This document shows positions 7,555 to 31,100 of a DNA stretch of 64,000 nucleotides, piece by piece. Position numbers and translations under genes: made by a program. How positions within the stretch are numbered: position 1 is the first letter of the stretch; every line of letters begins with the position of its first letter. Origin of the DNA: Bacteroidales bacterium (GTDB taxonomy: Bacteria > Bacteroidota > Bacteroidia > Bacteroidales > UBA1715); NCBI GenBank assembly GCA_045600045.1, contig JAZRXD010000044.1:5593-69592 (forward strand), written 5' to 3'. A model generated the notes under the pieces. The model had not been told where the DNA came from. It saw only the letters and a program-made list of their open reading frames with translations, and did no database searches.

Positions 7555-10155
7555 TTAATCACAAATCACGGTGTTTGTTTTGTTGCCAATTTTTACGAAA
7601 TAAATGCCTTTGCAAGGGATTGCGTACGACGCAGTGTTAGTCGTTTGTTGTTGTTTGGCAATCAGTTTTCCTGTTACGTTGTAAATGGCAACGGATTCGT
7701 CGTTGTCTAAACCAGAAACGATAATCTCGTTGTTGCAAACATATACGGAAATCGTGTTGTCGGCAATTGTATCAACGGCAGTGTTTGTATTTATGAAAAT
7801 GTTGTCGTTGCCTTTAATGTGTAAGCGTTGTACAACATTGTTGCGGACGATTATGCGAAGAACTGCATCGTCACGATTTTCTGCAGAGTAGAATTCTATG
7901 TCTTCTCCGGATTTTCTTATGATTAAATTGGTAAGTGGAGTTGTTTCGTCGTTTACGACAAGAGATTCAACACCATCAACGATAGTAAGTAATGCGGTTT
8001 CTTCGCCACATTGATATTCGCTTGCTATCATGTCCCAAACCGAAAGTTTCGAGAATACAATTTTATTGCTTGCGGTATCGGTCAATGTTACATTTTTAAT
8101 TGTGTCGTTTGGGATAGCGAATGAGAATGAATTACCGTCTTTGAAATCAAATTTGATAAGATTACTTGTTGTGTAGATTTTTTCAATATCGCTTATTGGA
8201 GTTTTGTGATTGATTTCGTCGTTGCCCATATAGATGTAATCGTCGTTGCTGAATTCAACATAGAAATCCTCCAGTTTCTCAATTTCCGATTCACCGTTTT
8301 TAGATTCAAAATAGTATGCGTTTTTGATTTTATCTAATACATTGCTGTAAGTGATAGGGTGGTAAACAATGTTTCCTTTCGATGTGAATTCTGTTAAAGA
8401 AACGGCAACATTGTTTTGGATTTGCACAACAAAGTATTTGTTGTTCCATATTTTGTTGCTGAATGTGTAATTGTCGCCGATTTTTGATATTCGTGGATTG
8501 GTTTCGCTGAATGTGTAGTAACTATCAACGTTATTCATTCCATCCGTGTTTGCGAATTGGTTAACCCACATAAAACTTGGCGTGTCTTTGCCGGTTTCGA
8601 AATTAGTCATTGGGATTAGTGAGATAACTGTTCCGTCTTCTGTGATATAAGAACCTTTGATTATGTCCCAAATGTCCTCAATGGTGATGTTTTCTACAAT
8701 CGTTTTGGTGCAAATGTACAATTGATCCTCTGCTTCGTTTTTCACAGTAAGCTTTTCGGCTGTTCCGTCTTCTCCAAGGGTGAAAGTGAATGTCGTGTTT
8801 TCGTTGTATGTTAAGTATATTTTGTCGTTCTTTTGGTGGATGTCGGTAAGAGCATTCGTCTTGATTTTCGTATATTCAGTTTTGCCAAAATATCCTAAAA
8901 CAATGGAATCTGTTCCGTAGAAATCGAAGAATAAATCTTTAGTAGGTTCGGTTTCTTTGTCACCTTGGTAATAGCTTAGGCAATACGTTCCTTCGATAAG
9001 ATTAAGAAGCATATCGTAATTACAAGAAGGGGCTAGAATTTTTTCTTTTCTATCGTAGTGTTTTTGTCCGTTAAAGTCAATAGCCACATAGTAGATGATT
9101 CTGCCGCTTTGTGTGCAAGTTGCGTTGGTTGTATCGGAAGTTATTTCAACAGCAAGAGTGTCGGCGTGGCTTTCATCGTCTGTACAAACCAATATAGCTG
9201 AACAAGATGAGAAATCATCAGCCCACAACCATTTGCTGAATTCAAAATTATGTGTATGGGTTGGAATTTCTGTCCATCCTTCAGGGAAAAAGGTAGTATA
9301 GTTTGTTGCTTCCTGTTCGTTGAGTGGCATGTAGTTGCCGGTTGCGGAAACTCCCGAAAGCCAGTTATTAAGATTTGAACTTGTCCAACTGGTTAGTCCT
9401 ATGCTTATTTTATTCAAATTTTTGCAATCTTTAAACATGTTTGTATAGCAGTTGGTGGTTGTTTGTGTTGCAGGAAGTTCAGGGGCTGTTGTTAAACTTG
9501 TACAGCCAGAGAACATGCCGTTATAACAAGCCGTTTCCAAAGTTGTTGCAGGAAGTTCAGGGGCTGTTGTTAAACTTGAACAACCGGAGAACATGCTCTG
9601 ATAACAATTTTCTGCTAAAGTTGTTGCAGGAAGTTTAGGGGCTGATGTTAAACTTGTACAACCGGAGAACATGCTCTGATAACAATCTTTTGTCAATGTA
9701 GAGGCTGGCAATTGTAAATCGCTTGCCGAAGTAAGTCCGGGGCAATTATAAAATAAACGACCAAAACAAGAAGAATTGTCGTTCATCGTTCCTAATGTAA
9801 TCATAGACATGACATTGCCGCTTGCCGAAACATCACCAGTTATTGAAAAATATAAACCATCTTCGCTAGATGTGGATCCAATATTATTGATATTTGGGGT
9901 TGTGTTTCGAAAATAGATTTTTTCATTTGTGTTGAGGGTGAATGCGTCCGACGAGTTTTTATGTTCAATTGTGATTTCATTCCAATTAGTTCCGTCGGTA
10001 CTATATGTAAATGTGTAATCTTCTGATGACCAATTGTTTACTAACTTTATTGTTGAACCGTCGATGTTTGAAGTGAAACAAATTGGTTCGTTGCCTTGTG
10101 CCGAAAGTTCAATAGCGCATACGAGCGCAGCAAAGAATACAAATGCTTTTTTCAT
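7555..10155 (-). CDS. T9SS-secreted surface protein with BspA-like leucine-rich repeats
   Basis: Signal peptide LSA-Q; 26-aa repeats PATTLxxxCYxxMFSGCxSLTTAPEL; C-terminal type A CTD-like AIYNVTGKLI...KGIYFVKIGNKTNTVI. Confidence 0.82.
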   Translation of the reverse strand: MKKAFVFFAALVCAIELSAQGNEPICFTSNIDGSTIKLVNNWSSEDYTFTYSTDGTNWNEITIEHKNSSDAFTLNTNEKIYFRNTTPNINNIGSTSSEDGLYFSITGDVSASGNVMSMITLGTMNDNSSCFGRLFYNCPGLTSASDLQLPASTLTKDCYQSMFSGCTSLTSAPKLPATTLAENCYQSMFSGCSSLTTAPELPATTLETACYNGMFSGCTSLTTAPELPATQTTTNCYTNMFKDCKNLNKISIGLTSWTSSNLNNWLSGVSATGNYMPLNEQEATNYTTFFPEGWTEIPTHTHNFEFSKWLWADDFSSCSAILVCTDDESHADTLAVEITSDTTNATCTQSGRIIYYVAIDFNGQKHYDRKEKILAPSCNYDMLLNLIEGTYCLSYYQGDKETEPTKDLFFDFYGTDSIVLGYFGKTEYTKIKTNALTDIHQKNDKIYLTYNENTTFTFTLGEDGTAEKLTVKNEAEDQLYICTKTIVENITIEDIWDIIKGSYITEDGTVISLIPMTNFETGKDTPSFMWVNQFANTDGMNNVDSYYTFSETNPRISKIGDNYTFSNKIWNNKYFVVQIQNNVAVSLTEFTSKGNIVYHPITYSNVLDKIKNAYYFESKNGESEIEKLEDFYVEFSNDDYIYMGNDEINHKTPISDIEKIYTTSNLIKFDFKDGNSFSFAIPNDTIKNVTLTDTASNKIVFSKLSVWDMIASEYQCGEETALLTIVDGVESLVVNDETTPLTNLIIRKSGEDIEFYSAENRDDAVLRIIVRNNVVQRLHIKGNDNIFINTNTAVDTIADNTISVYVCNNEIIVSGLDNDESVAIYNVTGKLIAKQQQTTNTASYAIPCKGIYFVKIGNKTNTVICD
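9440..9720 (-). repeat. 78-bp tandem repeats encoding the LRR units
   Basis: CAGGAAGTT recurs at 9471, 9549 and 9627; CCGGAGAACATGCTCTGATAACAAT is identical at 9584 and 9662. Confidence 0.85.
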
Positions 10156-19647: not shown

Positions 19648-22600
19648 TTAATCTTCGTATTCGTCATATTCATCGAATTCCTCTTTTTGTTTCTTCGCTT
19701 TCGGAGATTGTGATTGTTCTTCCTCTTCATCGTAATTAGGAGCATAATCTTCGTAAGGTCTGTTTGCACGGAAACGTTCGTGATATTGACGTTTCAATGG
19801 TTCTCCGCCATCCTTATACATGTAAGGAGTTTCTTTCTTGCCGACATTCATAGTGCGTTTAGCTTCTTTCATATTGTGAACGGCTGTTACCATGTCAAAC
19901 ATACTTGCGTTTTTGTTTGTCGGGTCTTTTACATCCGATGTGACGAAGTACATTTCTCCGTGGTCGTAATGGAAGAAGATCCAGTTCTTTTTATCCAATT
20001 CGATGTAGCAAGTGAATTGGTCTCCGGAGTAAAGATTTGCATATTCAACAAAACCATTAACTGAACGGTTGACTTCGACATTGCCGATGCTGTAGATTCC
20101 AAGTTGTCCGACTGAACGATAGGCGTGTGCAGCTGAATCCCAAGCTAAATCAAGTTTCGAGAACGTGATTGTATGTTCTAGTTCTTTCGGTTTCTTTCTG
20201 ATAGTTCCATACATGTTGAGATCGGCTAAACATTCGTCTGCTTTCGCTTTTCCAAGCAATTCCGTAAGTCCTTTCTTGAAGGCTGGAGTGGTCATGCTTA
20301 CGCCTTTCAATGTTTGGCGTTTGTTCAATGTATCGGCAATTGCTTTTAGAATATTGTCGTCAAACATAAAGTCAACAGTGGTAACTGTTTCTAGAGTCAC
20401 ACGTCCCGAAGTGATGTTGTGCGTTACGGTTCCGTAAGTTCCAACTTTAACTTGTCCTAGGTCTAGTCCAAGATTGATAGAACCTTCGCCTTGTGTATTG
20501 CAATATTCGCGGTGGTACGTAATCAAGTTGCCGTCTTTCGTGTTGTCAAGAATTTTTTCTTTAGAACCAACTTTGTATTGACGAGTGGCTTTATCGTAGA
20601 ACAAGTATCCGTTCGCACTAATTAACGGTATGTCCTGAGGATAGCGTTTGTGCGATGTGAATGCCGTATAGATGCTTGTGTAACGAGAATCTGTGTACAT
20701 TGATGCACCAACAGCGACAGAATCCAAATCAAGCATATTGTCGCTTACAGGAATGAAGATTTCAAGAGGGTTGATGTCGCCTGCGAATTTGAACCACGTA
20801 GGTTTGATTTTAGCACATTCATTTGCAATCAATACATTACCGTTGAAGTTCAAATATTGGTGGTCAGACATCATTTTGTAATCGCCGTAATAGCTGAAAA
20901 CCGACGATAGTTTGAAGTTTTGTTCTTCTTCCAATGTTCCAATACCGTATGTGTGTAGTGCTGTGTCAACTTTGATTTTTGTCAAAGGTAGAGGATGTTT
21001 TGTACTTGTTTCGTCAACATAATCGTACATACCATGTCCGGAGAAGTTGTTGCGTCCTTTTACAAAGAACGTTGCGTCGTAAACAGTGTGGTATTTGTGG
21101 ATTCTGTCGGCGTATAATTTGGCATTACGAAGTGTGTCCATGAACGCTTCTTGGCGAATGGTTACTACGCTATCTTTGTTTGGTACTATTCGTGAGTCCG
21201 CAACGTCAATGTAAGGAACTTGTTCCGCACCAATGATATAGTTTTTCAAATCGTATGTAGCATAAGGTGATAGGAAGTTCAACGTATCTTGTTTTGGATG
21301 TACGGAATAGAAGTGAAGGTCACGTTTGTCGGTGTTCAAGTCTTTCGGATCACCCAAAGCGATTTGTTTCGTGTGTAAATCCCATGTGAATTTTGTCAAA
21401 TAGCAGACGTACATGTTCTTTGGCAATTGAACCAACGACAAAGAATCGTTTGTCACGAAGTTCGCTTTTTTCGATGTGAAGTCAATGTTTGCTTTCACGT
21501 TTTTAGTTTTGAATGCTAATTCATCCAAAGCACCTCCTTGACTTTGCAAATCAAAGTCGGCAGAGTCGGCGTTCACGATTTTTTCTTTGAAGTCGAATGC
21601 GTTGGATGTAAGTTTTGCTTCACTGAAAATGTATTTACCCCATCCGCCAAGACCTTTTGGTGTGTATATCAAACCGCCGGAAAGAGTTGTTGAATCACCG
21701 TACATTTTGAATGCTTTTCCTGTTTCAACAGCCATAAGTTTGTTTTCGTATGGTTCCCAGTGGATGTTGATGTTTTCGCCTGTTACGCTTGGAGATTCTG
21801 GTCCGGAACTCTTTTGCTTAATGTTGAAATTCGTTGCGAAACCATTTGTTGAATCAGGGAAGAATGTGAATCCGTTAGGTCCCGATTCCGAACGTGAACT
21901 AAGGTAGTCCAATTTTCCGAAACCTTTCAAACCTTTGAAACTTAAGTTGATAGTATCGGTGAAAGTTCCTTTGCCTTTATAGGTTGGATAACCCGAAGAA
22001 CCAGTAATTCTTGTGAAACCAAATGAATAATCAGGTTGAACAACAATGCGTTCGCGTATGTTTTCGAATATGTCGGCTGAAATTAATTCTCCTTCAAAGA
22101 ACAAAGCGTCGGTCGAGAAGTCGTTCACACTGTCGATAGTAAATGGGTCAACTTTATAGTAGAATTTGTTTCTGTCGTAAACACCATCGTAAATTTTAGG
22201 ATTGTCGTAGTAAACATACGAGATTTCCTTGCTGTTGAAAATAGGATATTGAGGGTAATCCTTGATACTTGATTTGTTGTTCGGATCGTCAATCAAAATG
22301 TCACCGGTTACGTGTTCTATAGAGTTCTTTATAGGAACGAATTCTTTCACACCATATTGATTTTCGGTGAAGCTTTTAACTTTGATTTTCAATGAATCGA
22401 CATTTTGCAAGTTGATTTTGAAGTTTTCGTAATTGAAGTCGAAGCCTCGTCCGTAGAATGTGAACAAACCAGTTTCTATAATTCCGTCGAATTCAAAGTT
22501 TCTGTTTTTCGACATGGTAAGTTGGCTACCGCGAGGATAGAATACAACGTTTTGTGAATCGGAAACTTGGATTTTCGAAACACCGACCATGTTTAATTCC

Positions 22601-24255
22601 AAATTTGTTAAATCCAACGTTGCGTTCGACATGCCTTTCATGTCGTGTTCTGATTCGAATTTAATAACATCGTAGTCGATTTTTCCTACAACAGCGTCAA
22701 GATATTCGTAGGTACGTTGCTTTATCGTCAGTTTGTTGTTTTTGGCGTCAAAAGTGATTAAACCTCTGAATGACAAATCCAAACAAAGGTGGATTGCGTC
22801 AGCTTCAGGCATTCTCATATAAGCTGCGTATTCCGATACGGTGAATGTTTCGGTTTGTTTTGCTTTGCTCATACGACGAAGGGCAACCAATGGGTGTATT
22901 TCGTTGAACATACCAATTTCGCGGTATCGTGATTCGCGGAAATAGTTCGATGATTCAAAAGTCGCTTTGCTCAACGTGGTTCCCGACATTCCGCCCATTT
23001 GCATTTCTGGATTGTCAATTTGCCAAGTTAATTGTTGGAAATCCATATCGAGCATGTGGTATGAGTCGAAATATGGGCTTCGTGACAAGTTTTCGGTGTC
23101 GCCGTCGCGGATTAAGTTTACTGTTCGTGTGGCAACATTATATTTGAACATAAGTCCTGGATGGTAGATAGAGTCTTGTTCAATGTAAATGCTGACAGCG
23201 GCGTTACGACTGACGATGCTTTCCTTTTGGAATGTGTATCCAACCGATGAAGTCTTGAATATTTTTTTACCGTTGTTCGTGAATTCAAGTGTTGCAGGTT
23301 CTTGAATGGAACCGGAACCAATAAATTTGGAGCCATTCATACTAAAACCACCACGGTAGTTGATTCCTGGGTAAATATCTTTTATCACAAAAATGTTTTG
23401 GTACGATTTGAAACGTGGGTAGGTTACGTCGGCAGGATCTTTTACCGAAATTGTTTTGTCTTCCAACGAACCGAAGATTTTTTCGGAATAATATGTGTCG
23501 TTTGTAAACCAGACTGAATCGGCTTTGTAACTGGATTTAGTCATGTCTATGTCGTATTTGCTCAATTCAGCGAAAACAGATTCACTATTAAAGTTTGAAC
23601 GTTCCCAAGTAACTTTTCCTCCGTCGCCAATCCATTTGTTGTCAAAAGGAAGGTAATAACCGCTTGCTTGGTAAATCACAAATGAATTGCCTGTTGACGT
23701 ACATTGAATATTTGTCGGTGGCATTGTGATTTTTGCAACATTGTTTTCGAATGTGTATGTGAATGATTTCACGCGAAGCAATGTCCAAGTAACTGACGAT
23801 GAAGCGAATATTTGATGTTCCTTAAGCAAGATGTATGCATTTTTACAGAATTTGTCTGAAAATGACAATGCTTTGGTTTTCAATAAATGGCGTAAGGCTT
23901 CGTCCCATGCATGATAGCTTGTCATTGAATGGTCGGTAGTGAAAAATGCTTCGGCTGTTTGCAAATAATTAAATAGGTTGGTTGCTTTTCCCGATTTTTT
24001 CAAAATAGCGTTCGCAGTTGCCACAATACGGCTTTTTTCTTCGCGGTCGATTGTTCCCGAATCCCAAGAATCTTTTTTGAATTGCTTCAAATATTTGATG
24101 TAGTCGGGACCTTGTGCAGATTTCGAGAATACTTCCTCCATTTGTTGTAGGAAAAGAACTTCATCGTCTGCAAATTGCTTTACCTGGGCGTTTGCCAGAA
24201 ATGCCGCACTTAGGAATGTGCACAAAAGAATGAGTTTCTTGAATCGTGTAACCAT
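19648..24255 (-). CDS. Large secreted beta-rich protein of unknown function (1535 aa)
   Basis: Long uninterrupted ORF, signal peptide ANA-Q, internal repeat, acidic C-terminal tail, no catalytic motif recognised. Confidence 0.85.
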   Translation of the reverse strand: MVTRFKKLILLCTFLSAAFLANAQVKQFADDEVLFLQQMEEVFSKSAQGPDYIKYLKQFKKDSWDSGTIDREEKSRIVATANAILKKSGKATNLFNYLQTAEAFFTTDHSMTSYHAWDEALRHLLKTKALSFSDKFCKNAYILLKEHQIFASSSVTWTLLRVKSFTYTFENNVAKITMPPTNIQCTSTGNSFVIYQASGYYLPFDNKWIGDGGKVTWERSNFNSESVFAELSKYDIDMTKSSYKADSVWFTNDTYYSEKIFGSLEDKTISVKDPADVTYPRFKSYQNIFVIKDIYPGINYRGGFSMNGSKFIGSGSIQEPATLEFTNNGKKIFKTSSVGYTFQKESIVSRNAAVSIYIEQDSIYHPGLMFKYNVATRTVNLIRDGDTENLSRSPYFDSYHMLDMDFQQLTWQIDNPEMQMGGMSGTTLSKATFESSNYFRESRYREIGMFNEIHPLVALRRMSKAKQTETFTVSEYAAYMRMPEADAIHLCLDLSFRGLITFDAKNNKLTIKQRTYEYLDAVVGKIDYDVIKFESEHDMKGMSNATLDLTNLELNMVGVSKIQVSDSQNVVFYPRGSQLTMSKNRNFEFDGIIETGLFTFYGRGFDFNYENFKINLQNVDSLKIKVKSFTENQYGVKEFVPIKNSIEHVTGDILIDDPNNKSSIKDYPQYPIFNSKEISYVYYDNPKIYDGVYDRNKFYYKVDPFTIDSVNDFSTDALFFEGELISADIFENIRERIVVQPDYSFGFTRITGSSGYPTYKGKGTFTDTINLSFKGLKGFGKLDYLSSRSESGPNGFTFFPDSTNGFATNFNIKQKSSGPESPSVTGENINIHWEPYENKLMAVETGKAFKMYGDSTTLSGGLIYTPKGLGGWGKYIFSEAKLTSNAFDFKEKIVNADSADFDLQSQGGALDELAFKTKNVKANIDFTSKKANFVTNDSLSLVQLPKNMYVCYLTKFTWDLHTKQIALGDPKDLNTDKRDLHFYSVHPKQDTLNFLSPYATYDLKNYIIGAEQVPYIDVADSRIVPNKDSVVTIRQEAFMDTLRNAKLYADRIHKYHTVYDATFFVKGRNNFSGHGMYDYVDETSTKHPLPLTKIKVDTALHTYGIGTLEEEQNFKLSSVFSYYGDYKMMSDHQYLNFNGNVLIANECAKIKPTWFKFAGDINPLEIFIPVSDNMLDLDSVAVGASMYTDSRYTSIYTAFTSHKRYPQDIPLISANGYLFYDKATRQYKVGSKEKILDNTKDGNLITYHREYCNTQGEGSINLGLDLGQVKVGTYGTVTHNITSGRVTLETVTTVDFMFDDNILKAIADTLNKRQTLKGVSMTTPAFKKGLTELLGKAKADECLADLNMYGTIRKKPKELEHTITFSKLDLAWDSAAHAYRSVGQLGIYSIGNVEVNRSVNGFVEYANLYSGDQFTCYIELDKKNWIFFHYDHGEMYFVTSDVKDPTNKNASMFDMVTAVHNMKEAKRTMNVGKKETPYMYKDGGEPLKRQYHERFRANRPYEDYAPNYDEEEEQSQSPKAKKQKEEFDEYDEYED

Positions 24256-28974: not shown

Positions 28975-29005
28975 AAAAGGTCGGCTCGTTTTGAGTCGAC
29001 CTTTT
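28975..29005. terminator. Bidirectional terminator between the MerR gene and ferredoxin
   Basis: AAAAGGTCGGCTC-GTTTT-GAGTCGACCTTTT. Confidence 0.8.
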
Positions 29006-29023: not shown

Positions 29024-29194
29024 TTATTCTTCTGGTTTGATTGCACCAGTTGGGCAAACTTCTTCGCATGATCCGCAGTCTGTACAAGCATCTGCGTTTA
29101 CTTTGAAAATATCTCCTTCTTCGATAGCACCTGCTGGGCATTCGCCTTGGCAAGCTCCACAAGCTATACAATCTTCTGAAATTTTGTGTGCCAT
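29024..29194 (-). CDS. 2[4Fe-4S] ferredoxin (56 aa, below the ORF track cutoff)
   Basis: MAHKISEDCIACGACQGECPAGAIEEGDIFKVNADACTDCGSCEEVCPTGAIKPEE: two CxxCxxCxxxCP motifs. Confidence 0.96.
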   Translation of the reverse strand: MAHKISEDCIACGACQGECPAGAIEEGDIFKVNADACTDCGSCEEVCPTGAIKPEE

Positions 29195-29315: not shown

Positions 29316-31100
29316 TCACTTGTTATGCACCAATATGCCGTTGGCAAAGTACGTGTGTTTTGTGGTTGTTATATTATAAACTTCCTTATTTTCTGTCGAT
29401 ATACGTAAATCAGTTATTGTTACTGGTTGCAACGCATTGCTTTTCCCATCGTGTACATACAATATGTCGTTTTTGCGCAATTCATCGGCTCGAAGCCATT
29501 GAGATTTGCACCAAAATGGATGATTGTTCGTACATTGTATGCTTGTCCCATTCGATAGCGAAAGCGTGACAATAGGATAGGTATCCACCGTATGTTTCAT
29601 AACTCGTAACACAAGTGCCGTGTCAATCTTGTGTGTTTCGGTATCATACGCCATTATCACATCGTTTTCTTTAACATCTGCAATGCGTTTGTTTCGTAAA
29701 TCCTGTAATTCAACCAGAGTGTTTTTGTCAAAACAGGTACTGTACATTTGAATTAACGTATTAGGCAACTCTTTGTTAAATCTATCGTGATAATATTTAA
29801 GTTGATCCTGACATACAATGAGCGATTTCAGATTATTTAATTGAAAAATGCCATCGGGAAGAATTTGCATTTCTTTTTGGATACATTGACCGTAATTTCC
29901 TAAATATAAGGCATCCAGTTGTTGTAATAAATGCATATTCGATGGTAATTCGTTAAAACATTCATAAAGAGCCAATTCTTTCAAGTTTTTAAGATTTGAC
30001 AATAGTTTGATTGTTGCTTGTGGATTGGAAATCTTTGTAGAACGAATTATAATGTTTGTAAGATTTTGTAATTGCAATAATTCATTTGGCAAAGATTGAA
30101 TAGGTTGTATGTCATTTATGAAAAGTTGCGTAACATTTTTACATAAAAAAATTTCAGATGGTATATTCTTAAATCCTCGACCACTAATAGTTATGGAACG
30201 TAATCTTGGTAATTGTGTTATTTTATGAATGTGTTTATTCATTATTGATCTATAGACACTATCTTCTTCATCATTATTATTGATTGACAAAGATTCTAGA
30301 TTTATATATTGGTCAAGGTTACTGAAGATTGAATCAACTTGTGAGTAGTTTTTCTGTTTCCAACGGCAATCAATTTGTAGTTCATAGGTCGTTTCGTATG
30401 AGGAATTCTCAATTTTTCTTTCAGAAATCAAATTCCCTTGTTTGTAATATTCAACTTTTAGTGTATCGCCATTTTTGTTGATATAAACTGCATTCCCTTC
30501 AAGTTCATCGTCTTTATAATTACAAGTTACTTGTATGGTGTTGCGTCGTGTCCAATACGTAGTTTCTCCTTGTTTTAACCCATTTTTATAATGAAAAGTT
30601 CCATTTTTACCATCCAACCAATAATATGGATTGTCGTCATAAATCCAATTCGTAGTATAGTCACCATCAAGTTTATTGTGTACGTAATTGGTTTCAAGAT
30701 ATTTATGGCCATTTTTATTATATGAAATCCACGGGCCGTTCAATTCTCCGTTTTTATATACACACGATGTACGTAGTTGATGATTGTCATAGTAAGACTT
30801 CCATTCGCCAGAAAACTCGCCATTTACCACAGTACATTCCGCAGCCAATAGGGTAAAATCTGGATCGGCATAGATTTTAAATGTACCGTCTTTTTTCAGA
30901 AACGCATTTTCAACAATGGCATCCCAATAGTCAAATATGTCACCATAATGAACAACCCAACTTAAATCAGAAGGATTCAAACCATATCTTGATTTGGATA
31001 TGTCAAAATATGCGGTATCGTAAAAATTGATTTTTTTTGTTTGCCCAAAAATGTTTACGGTACAAAACAAAAATAGAATGTAGAGTAGTGCTTTTTTCAT
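29316..31100 (-). CDS. Secreted MORN-repeat/LRR protein with C-terminal Hint (intein-like) domain
   Basis: Signal peptide IFG-Q; MORN-like GEWKSYYDN, YKNGELNGPW; LRRs LPRLRSITI, LQNLTNIII, LKNLKELAL; Hint CFDKNT...TNNHPF...VYNI...FANGILVHNK-stop. Confidence 0.88.
   Translation of the reverse strand: MKKALLYILFLFCTVNIFGQTKKINFYDTAYFDISKSRYGLNPSDLSWVVHYGDIFDYWDAIVENAFLKKDGTFKIYADPDFTLLAAECTVVNGEFSGEWKSYYDNHQLRTSCVYKNGELNGPWISYNKNGHKYLETNYVHNKLDGDYTTNWIYDDNPYYWLDGKNGTFHYKNGLKQGETTYWTRRNTIQVTCNYKDDELEGNAVYINKNGDTLKVEYYKQGNLISERKIENSSYETTYELQIDCRWKQKNYSQVDSIFSNLDQYINLESLSINNNDEEDSVYRSIMNKHIHKITQLPRLRSITISGRGFKNIPSEIFLCKNVTQLFINDIQPIQSLPNELLQLQNLTNIIIRSTKISNPQATIKLLSNLKNLKELALYECFNELPSNMHLLQQLDALYLGNYGQCIQKEMQILPDGIFQLNNLKSLIVCQDQLKYYHDRFNKELPNTLIQMYSTCFDKNTLVELQDLRNKRIADVKENDVIMAYDTETHKIDTALVLRVMKHTVDTYPIVTLSLSNGTSIQCTNNHPFWCKSQWLRADELRKNDILYVHDGKSNALQPVTITDLRISTENKEVYNITTTKHTYFANGILVHNK

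Follow-up and report, generated by a model that had tools for sequence, protein, structure and literature searches.

A leucine-rich repeat protein of gut Bacteroidales with a C-terminal Hint domain, through which it probably removes or re-joins its own binding part

Background

What can a Hint domain do when a single residue follows it? This question is raised by a gene in a 64,000-nucleotide stretch of DNA from a Bacteroidales bacterium (GTDB lineage UBA1715; assembly GCA_045600045.1, contig JAZRXD010000044.1, positions 5,593 to 69,592 of the forward strand), hereafter the window, which encodes a 594-amino-acid (aa) protein with a leader-like N-terminus, MORN-like repeats, leucine-rich repeats (LRRs) and a Hint domain that ends in His-Asn and is followed only by Lys and the stop codon. 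The natural roles of bacterial Hint domains without a +1 nucleophile are poorly understood. Domains that end in His-Asn (HN) and lack such a nucleophile have been described as type A bacterial intein-like (BIL) domains, which give mostly cleavage products (Mills et al., PMC4031507; also PMC7765530), and any ligation by them has been proposed to occur by attack of the freed amine of the C-flank on the thioester (PMC4031507). An earlier note on the window, made from the DNA letters, had put forward a self-processing or self-anchoring protein, and overlooked that an HN end without a +1 nucleophile is already a named class. In this study, we find that the C-terminal domain is a real, complete Hint under selection, whose catalytic residues are invariant; formation of a Thr455-Cys456 thioester and release of the MORN-LRR module is thus the natural reading. 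We therefore propose a self-removing C-terminal Hint whose thioester would be resolved by hydrolysis or thiolysis, a reading to which we give a probability of about one half.

Results

Hint fold and catalytic residues

Residues 453-593 matched three Pfam models above their cut-offs, PT-HINT at 46.7 bits (cut-off 27.7), Intein_splicing at 44.0 (35.8) and Hint at 32.3 (29.7), and the NCBIfam model TIGR01443 intein_Cterm matched residues 573-593 at 22.8 bits (15.6). At 139 aa the domain leaves no room for an endonuclease insert. The AlphaFold2 (AF2) model built from a 49-sequence Hint alignment reached a mean per-residue confidence (pLDDT) of 93.7 and a predicted template modelling score (pTM) of 0.87, so that the horseshoe beta-fold of the Hint superfamily is confidently predicted. 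With this model, Foldseek retrieved 70 chains from the PDB at E<=0.001; those listed as best (ranks 1-48) were exclusively inteins, BIL domains or Hedgehog. They included BIL2 of the Tetrahymena BUBL1 locus (6y75; E 6.6e-12, template modelling score, TM, 0.82), the Ssp and Npu DnaB mini-inteins (TM 0.83), Hedgehog (1at0 and 6tyy; TM 0.81) and a C. thermocellum BIL (2lwy; TM 0.81); across BIL2, the mini-inteins and Hedgehog the range was 0.80-0.83. The possibility, allowed for in the earlier note, that structure prediction might reveal no Hint fold does not apply.

All residues that class 1 inteins use for step 1 (the N-to-S acyl shift) and step 3 (Asn cyclisation) are in place, namely C456, T524..H527 and H592-N593. 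Both the step 2 residue, a +1 Cys, Ser or Thr, and the C-extein are lacking: the +1 position is Lys594, as in 21/21 family members, and the stop follows it. The codons for S-T-C lie at 29741-29733 and those for the H-N-K-stop end at 29327-29316.

A family of LRR-Hint proteins

Four close homologs were found (98, 63, 56 and 55% identity, 590-594 aa), each ending VLVHNK-stop. A word-index search with the whole protein gave four true relatives, and one with the family profile described below, in which the 8000 candidates sharing most words were scored, was swamped by generic LRR/MORN_2 proteins. A phmmer search with query residues 446-594 against 1.84 billion representatives gave 6820 matches at E<=1e-3, and among the best 150 proteins 37 ended at most five residues past His-Asn, 25 of them exactly at HNK-stop. 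Pfam was run on 36 of these 37 (P0003 was left out as an already known family member), and 16 of the 36 had the layout of LRRs plus a terminal Hint, at lengths of 462-698 aa. The close homologs, these 16 proteins and P0041 (793 aa, same ending, no LRR match) were combined, query protein included, into a 21-row alignment in which the 20 other proteins share 20-63% identity with the query. In the source databases, members of these clusters are named "hypothetical", "YwqK antitoxin" or "LRR protein". Within the metagenome-assembled genome (MAG) of the 63% homolog L078, a 174-aa open reading frame (ORF) at a contig end (L079:92-613) is 67% identical to residues 421-594 and has the same HNK-stop end, perhaps as part of a second copy or as a product of fragmented assembly.

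Sixteen alignment columns are invariant, among them Cys456, Thr524, His527, His592, Asn593 and Lys594, and the stop comes directly after the Lys in all 21 members. The residue before Cys456 is variable; Pro446 is invariant, and the linker from Pro446 to Cys456 has a constant length. At E<=0.01, Pfam found PT-HINT in 21/21 rows, LRR_14 in 20/21 and MORN_2 in 8/21. The Hint is the best-conserved part of the protein, both in the 55-63% homologs (69-71% identity vs 47-60% in the N-terminal parts) and in 17 distant members (35% vs 18-23%). A FastTree tree of 327 Hint domains placed 19 of the 20 family Hints in one 32-tip clade (support 0.94), of which 22 tips end HNK-stop, and the most recent common ancestor of all 20 defines a 108-tip clade (support 0.49, midpoint-rooted). 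With domains of about 140 aa this tree is weakly resolved, and the direction of change (gain or loss of the terminal position) was not inferred from it.

The +1 lysine and related Hint arrays

Lys follows the terminal Asn in 215 of 313 near-complete HN-ending Hint domains from 152 phmmer-derived proteins: in 38/41 terminal domains, 105/134 that stand ahead of another Hint and 72/138 other internal ones. Only phmmer-derived proteins were counted, and the genome-contig loci retrieved by pattern were set aside as biased, since the pattern contained HNK. Because Lys +1 is common in internal and tandem Hints too, HN-K is, on these counts, a trait of the wider Hint clade and not particular to terminal copies. 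HNK-stop is also the ending of the single-domain Hint relatives closest in identity, and in tandem Hint arrays the next Hint begins after K or K-G.

Such arrays were met in several forms. ORFs of about 700-1000 aa with tandem Hints joined by Lys-Gly only (HNK-G-CFLP...) occur in Planctomycetota, Verrucomicrobiota, Lentisphaerae, Nitrospirota, Legionella and others (they include L082, L085, L088, L090-L094, L096, L098-L101, L103 and L104), and many tandem-Hint ORFs begin with a signal peptide and then GGGGC (e.g. P0010, P0012, P0015); we know of no function proposed for these Lys-Gly-joined arrays. A family of about 750-900 aa (P0039, P0042, P0061, P0077, P0108, P0134, P0138, P0150) starts MKGTLFSADF...RLLE(I/L)NT and has an N-terminal region of about 460 aa with no Pfam match and no obvious leader, then two to three tandem Hints and a C-terminus of HNK or HNKL/F. 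Within the 32-tip clade, P0055, P0058, P0075, P0091, P0098, P0104, P0111 and P0127 run from HNK directly into the Cys-Leu of a second Hint-like domain, so that one Lys is the +1 residue of the first Hint and the -1 residue of the next; at least in P0055, P0058 and P0091, the second domain does not end in His-Asn. In Flavobacteriia there are very large ORFs of about 1300-1850 aa (L081, L086, L117, L124, L135, L143, L144, L146, L149; some of them interrupted at the end of a contig) whose terminal Hint has 3-11 residues after HNK, so that Hints near the C-terminus are common on large surface-type proteins as well.

Domain layout of the N-terminal part

The protein starts MKKALLYILFLFCTVNIFG and continues with Q, which was read by eye as a Sec leader. 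By eye also, [G/C/A/S]-Q stands behind a hydrophobic stretch in 16 of the 21 family members, and Gln after the leader is the pattern described as the Bacteroidetes "Q-rule" (PMC5837995, PMC10653852); the N-terminus is probably a leader for Sec export and signal peptidase I (SPI) of the Q-rule type. No lipobox was seen by eye: Cys13 is preceded by L-F-L-F, and it is missing in distant members such as P0070 and P0117. Pfam and NCBIfam scans of the protein found no C-terminal domain (CTD) of the type IX secretion system (T9SS), Por_Secre_tail, in a 2.5-Mb genome with 60 matches to that family, 59 of them above the cut-off, and the source organism therefore relies heavily on T9SS. One T9SS CTD match in the window, at 7570-7728 (-) (C44:13162-13320), ends an 868-aa frame.

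The repeats are supported by several partial lines of evidence. MORN_2 scored 20 bits (cut-off 29.6), the NCBIfam LIC20035 adhesin model matched residues 69-222 at E 9e-7, far under its cut-off, the 21-row family profile reached MORN_2 proteins at E 4.5e-49, and the low-confidence full-length model has strand pairs in this region. LRR_14 scored 31.6 bits (cut-off 40), and the LRR part matched Leptospira LRR proteins in a PDB sequence search at E down to 1e-10, with strands about 24 residues apart in about 7 repeats, judged from the sequence and the same model. That full-length AF2 model, from five sequences (pLDDT 51.6), was used for repeat counting alone. The earlier description, with its signal peptide, MORN-like repeats, LRRs, Hint domain from Cys456, TNNH motif and HN-K-stop end, proved correct in every structural detail when compared with the codons, the profiles and the leader as read by eye. 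The profile search it had called for placed the Hint models above their cut-offs and left MORN_2 and LRR_14 below theirs, where the family profile and PDB matches back them (Table 1).

Table 1. Position of the gene and of its features in the window
Feature	Position in window	Strand	Basis
Whole gene, 594 codons + stop	29316..31100	-	five full-length homologs (590-594 aa) aligned
Probable Sec/SPI leader, residues 1-19, predicted cleavage before Gln20	31044..31100	-	sequence read by eye
MORN_2-like beta-hairpin repeats, residues ~69-245	30366..30896	-	sub-threshold Pfam, family profile, low-confidence model
LRR region, ~7 repeats, residues ~253-447	29760..30344	-	sub-threshold LRR_14, PDB sequence matches, model strands
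Predicted scissile junction Thr455/Cys456 (Cys1 of Hint)	29733..29738	-	codons; Cys456 invariant 21/21
Hint domain, residues 456-593, mini-intein size	29322..29735	-	Pfam, NCBIfam, AF2, Foldseek
Block B, T524-N-N-H527	29520..29531	-	T524 and H527 invariant 21/21
Block G end, His592-Asn593	29322..29327	-	invariant 21/21
Single +1 residue Lys594, then stop	29316..29321	-	Lys-stop in 21/21 family members

Genomic context, distribution and composition

Upstream of the gene lie glyoxalase-like, SDR and S13 carboxypeptidase genes, and downstream a gene for a 56-aa 2x[4Fe-4S] ferredoxin (29024-29194) and a MerR regulator; these neighbours are of housekeeping type. Among the Pfam matches of the gene and its neighbours there was no family of toxins, pretoxins or immunity proteins, the minus strand has no ORF of at least 50 aa between the stop and the ferredoxin gene, and the 121 bases after the stop hold no ORF or coding remnant. 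The gene neighbourhood is the same in the 98-99% homologs. In the 63% homologs (L005, L006) an AAA_14/DUF4143 ATPase and a conserved 283-aa ORF with no Pfam match come after the gene, and AbiE or HipA toxin-antitoxin modules are close by, which looks like a variable or defence-type region; a distant member in a peat Bacteroidetes MAG has different neighbours again. No neighbour gene was conserved across these three genomic contexts.

Full-length homologs occur in six Bacteroidales MAGs among the species genomes, mostly with ruminant labels. Among 401 evenly sampled Bacteroidota genomes, one, the window's own, has a full-length match, the remaining matches covering the LRR or the Hint part alone, and in the window's own genome this gene is the single PT-HINT match. 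The family is thus rare and patchy, and it is this distribution, rather than composition, that supports the accessory status suggested earlier. The AT-richness cited for it is modest (GC 0.330 vs 0.377 for the window) and confined to the LRR part (0.285), the Hint part standing at 0.386. The adjoining palindrome, once taken for a repetitive extragenic palindromic (REP) element, turned out to be a pair of terminator-like hairpins, one, at 31168-31147 (-), coming after the upstream gene and the other, at 28975-29005, separating the MerR gene from that of the ferredoxin; they are single, stand at gene ends and are not repeated, and the REP reading was rejected.

In metagenome contigs from several studies the gene shows no indels, and the two that span the HN-K-stop bases list no difference there. 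Across the contigs (mixed strains, low depth) there were 7 synonymous and 15 non-synonymous single-nucleotide polymorphisms, none at catalytic residues or the stop. With totals of just 8 and 16 differences from the 98-99% homologs, the ratio of non-synonymous to synonymous change (pN/pS) could not be used. Elsewhere in the window, a 1535-aa ORF at 19648-24255 (-) matches no Pfam family at E<=1e-5.

Discussion

In the self-removal that we favour, the precursor would be exported via Sec and then fold, and Cys456 would attack the carbonyl of Thr455 in an N-to-S acyl shift helped by Thr524 and His527 of block B. The thioester would be resolved mainly by hydrolysis or by a small thiol, and the mature MORN-LRR module, about residues 20-455, would come free of the 139-aa Hint; cyclisation of Asn593 could also clip off Lys594. 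We infer that this chemistry occurs, that it does so in the compartment given here, and that cleavage rather than ligation is its main outcome. Several points weigh against such a scheme. Cleavage is a prediction from sequence and modelled fold. The strict conservation of His-Asn-Lys would be unneeded for plain N-terminal cleavage, and hints that a C-terminal reaction or the Lys itself matters; it would also be hard to see why selection should maintain a C-terminal domain that is removed and then serves no purpose, and the Cys nucleophile would have to remain reduced outside the cytoplasm. One RNA library gave short contigs over 30103-30608 only, which are possibly DNA carry-over and were not counted as evidence of expression.

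The nearest known class is the type A BIL. It shares with our domain the Hint fold, Cys1, the TxxH of block B, the terminal His-Asn and the absence of Cys, Ser or Thr at +1, and it is described as residing in non-conserved, secreted-type bacterial proteins with predicted self-cleavage at its N- and C-termini (Amitai 2003 and Dassa 2004, as summarised in PMC4031507 and PMC7765530). On the two features stated in the review of Mills et al., an HN end and no +1 nucleophile, the domain qualifies as type A; for the A-type-specific blocks (Amitai et al. 2003) the TM of 0.81 to the C. thermocellum BIL 2lwy gives indirect support only. The host protein is likewise of the variable, often secreted bacterial kind, with a leader-like N-terminus, an occurrence in 1/401 genomes and differing contexts in the 63% homologs. 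It differs in standing at the extreme C-terminus, where a one-residue C-flank leaves essentially nothing to splice, and in having a MORN-LRR module as cargo and Bacteroidota as host. BIL2, from the polyubiquitin-like BUBL1 locus of Tetrahymena thermophila (PDB 6Y75/6TMM), is the best structural match and also a sequence match (E 1e-5), and its reported reaction uses lysine as acyl acceptor (PMC8616854). However, BIL2 is a eukaryotic domain flanked on both sides by ubiquitin-like domains, it is only 22-23% identical, and its acceptor lysine is in a folded C-flank domain or in other proteins, not a lone terminal residue. Class 1 mini-inteins (Ssp and Npu DnaB, the Mtu RecA splicing domain) share size, fold (TM 0.82-0.83) and canonical-looking blocks A, B, F and G (VYNI...HTYFANGILVHN), but the protein described here has Lys at +1, no conserved housekeeping insertion site and no C-extein to ligate.

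Hedgehog/Hog proteins are also secreted, and their C-terminal Hint, of the same fold, forms a thioester where the N-terminal signal or binding module ends, after which the Hint is shed; there, however, a sterol-recognition region follows the Hint and the terminal Asn reaction is absent, whereas here HN-K-stop leaves one residue and no region to recognise a sterol or another adduct. PT-HINT (PF07591), the best-scoring Pfam model, likewise belongs to a bacterial secreted context, that of polymorphic toxins, where the domain is described as always lying between pretoxin domains and a C-terminal toxin and as associated with nearby immunity genes (Zhang et al. 2011, PMC3113570). None of these pretoxin, toxin or immunity features is present in our case, and the earlier observation that the gene has no toxin, immunity gene, endonuclease or +1 nucleophile is borne out by Pfam on the gene and its neighbours, by the 139-aa size and by Lys594. 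A precedent for terminal Hints in bacteria is a subgroup of secreted proteins with a signal peptide, a variable N-terminal region and a C-terminal Hint-like domain, reported from Myxococcus, Photorhabdus, Yersinia and others (Burglin 2008, PMC2362128); as described there it is divergent, with motifs A and B alone clear, and thus differs from a domain with full blocks F and G and an HN-K end. No description of Bacteroidota LRR-Hint proteins or of an HN-K-stop ending was found in the open-access literature.

Might the thioester instead be captured by an amine? Lys594 could attack by its epsilon-amine or, following the type A BIL route, by the alpha-amine that Asn593 cyclisation sets free, in a "micro-splice" that would give MORN-LRR-Lys and a free Hint; alternatively an outside nucleophile, such as a lysine of a partner protein, a stem-peptide amine of peptidoglycan or an amino lipid, would leave the LRR module covalently anchored. 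His592, Asn593 and Lys594 are kept in 21/21 members though one residue follows the domain, and both the mechanism proposed for type A BILs, in which a freed C-flank amine attacks the thioester (PMC4031507), and the isopeptides to the Lys epsilon-amine reported for BIL2, with ATP-free conjugation of its N-flank to several substrates (PMC8616854), point the same way, as does a leader with neither T9SS CTD nor lipobox in a genome that has 59 CTD matches above the cut-off. On the other hand, Lys at +1 is clade-wide and possibly inherited, a free single Lys would tend to diffuse off, no conserved neighbour gene suggests a partner, and the protein, unlike Hedgehog, has no region past the Hint for lipid binding. 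Amine capture in either variant therefore seems to us possible but rather unlikely. The earlier note had the module either released or coupled covalently to an envelope lipid, an amine or a partner protein, the latter as a new anchoring route, and only its thioester and release survive as the natural reading; the coupling and the anchoring route find no support here, with no conserved neighbour in three genomic contexts and nothing after the Hint that could recruit an adduct. Because lysine side chains are reported as acceptors for the N-flank of BIL2 (PMC8616854), covalent coupling is kept among the possible outcomes. A bolder version, in which the terminal Hint is a self-contained, ATP-independent ligase that passes the Thr455 thioester to Lys594 or to an envelope amine (of a lysine, peptidoglycan or an amino lipid) and so fixes the LRR module covalently outside the cytoplasm, we regard as decidedly doubtful.

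It is also conceivable that the Hint does not cleave at all and serves the intact 594-aa protein as a structural or docking domain, for example in oligomerisation or envelope binding. Nothing speaks for this directly; some intein-like elements are inactive until mutated, a Magnetospirillum BIL being reported to splice only after its Tyr+1 was changed to Cys (PMC4031507), and the constant linker from Pro446 to Cys456 could reflect packing of the Hint on the LRR cap. However, what is still invariant at 20-35% identity is precisely the catalytic set, Cys1, the Thr and His of block B and the terminal His-Asn, which a purely structural domain would not need, and we consider this improbable. A remnant, either of a polymorphic toxin whose toxin part, once downstream of PT-HINT, has been lost or of a selfish intein in decay, left behind where a gene ends, is very improbable indeed. 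The PT-HINT match, the toxin-antitoxin modules and AAA ATPases adjoining the 63%-identical homologs and the rarity and patchiness of the family would fit it, but the Hint is the most conserved region and metagenome contigs carry no indels, the gene and its surroundings lack toxin, pretoxin and immunity families, with no coding remnant past the stop, and the nearest single-domain Hint relatives end in the same way. The truncated toxin in particular, which the earlier note had foreseen if homologs ran on past HN, was rejected: the HN-K-stop ending is family-wide (21/21), and none of the members continues into a toxin.

Conclusions

The chemistry class to which this protein belongs, a Hint without a +1 nucleophile, is known; what is unusual is that, in a family of secreted LRR proteins, a complete mini-intein-like domain forms the extreme C-terminus. 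With one cargo, one junction and one C-flank residue, the LRR-Hint family is a clean natural test case, which could show whether such domains cleave, add a residue or ligate their cargo elsewhere. If only cleavage takes place, the family would be an ordinary though tidy BIL variant. If ligation is true, it would be a new route in diderms for covalent fixation to the envelope, working in Bacteroidota without sortase, T9SS or lipobox, and a bacterial counterpart of Hedgehog lipidation or of the ubiquitin-like conjugation reported for BIL2. In that case the 139-aa domain would also be the natural equivalent of the C-terminal intein fusions engineered to produce protein thioesters. Either way, the binding part of this LRR-Hint protein of gut Bacteroidales is probably cut off or re-attached by the protein itself.

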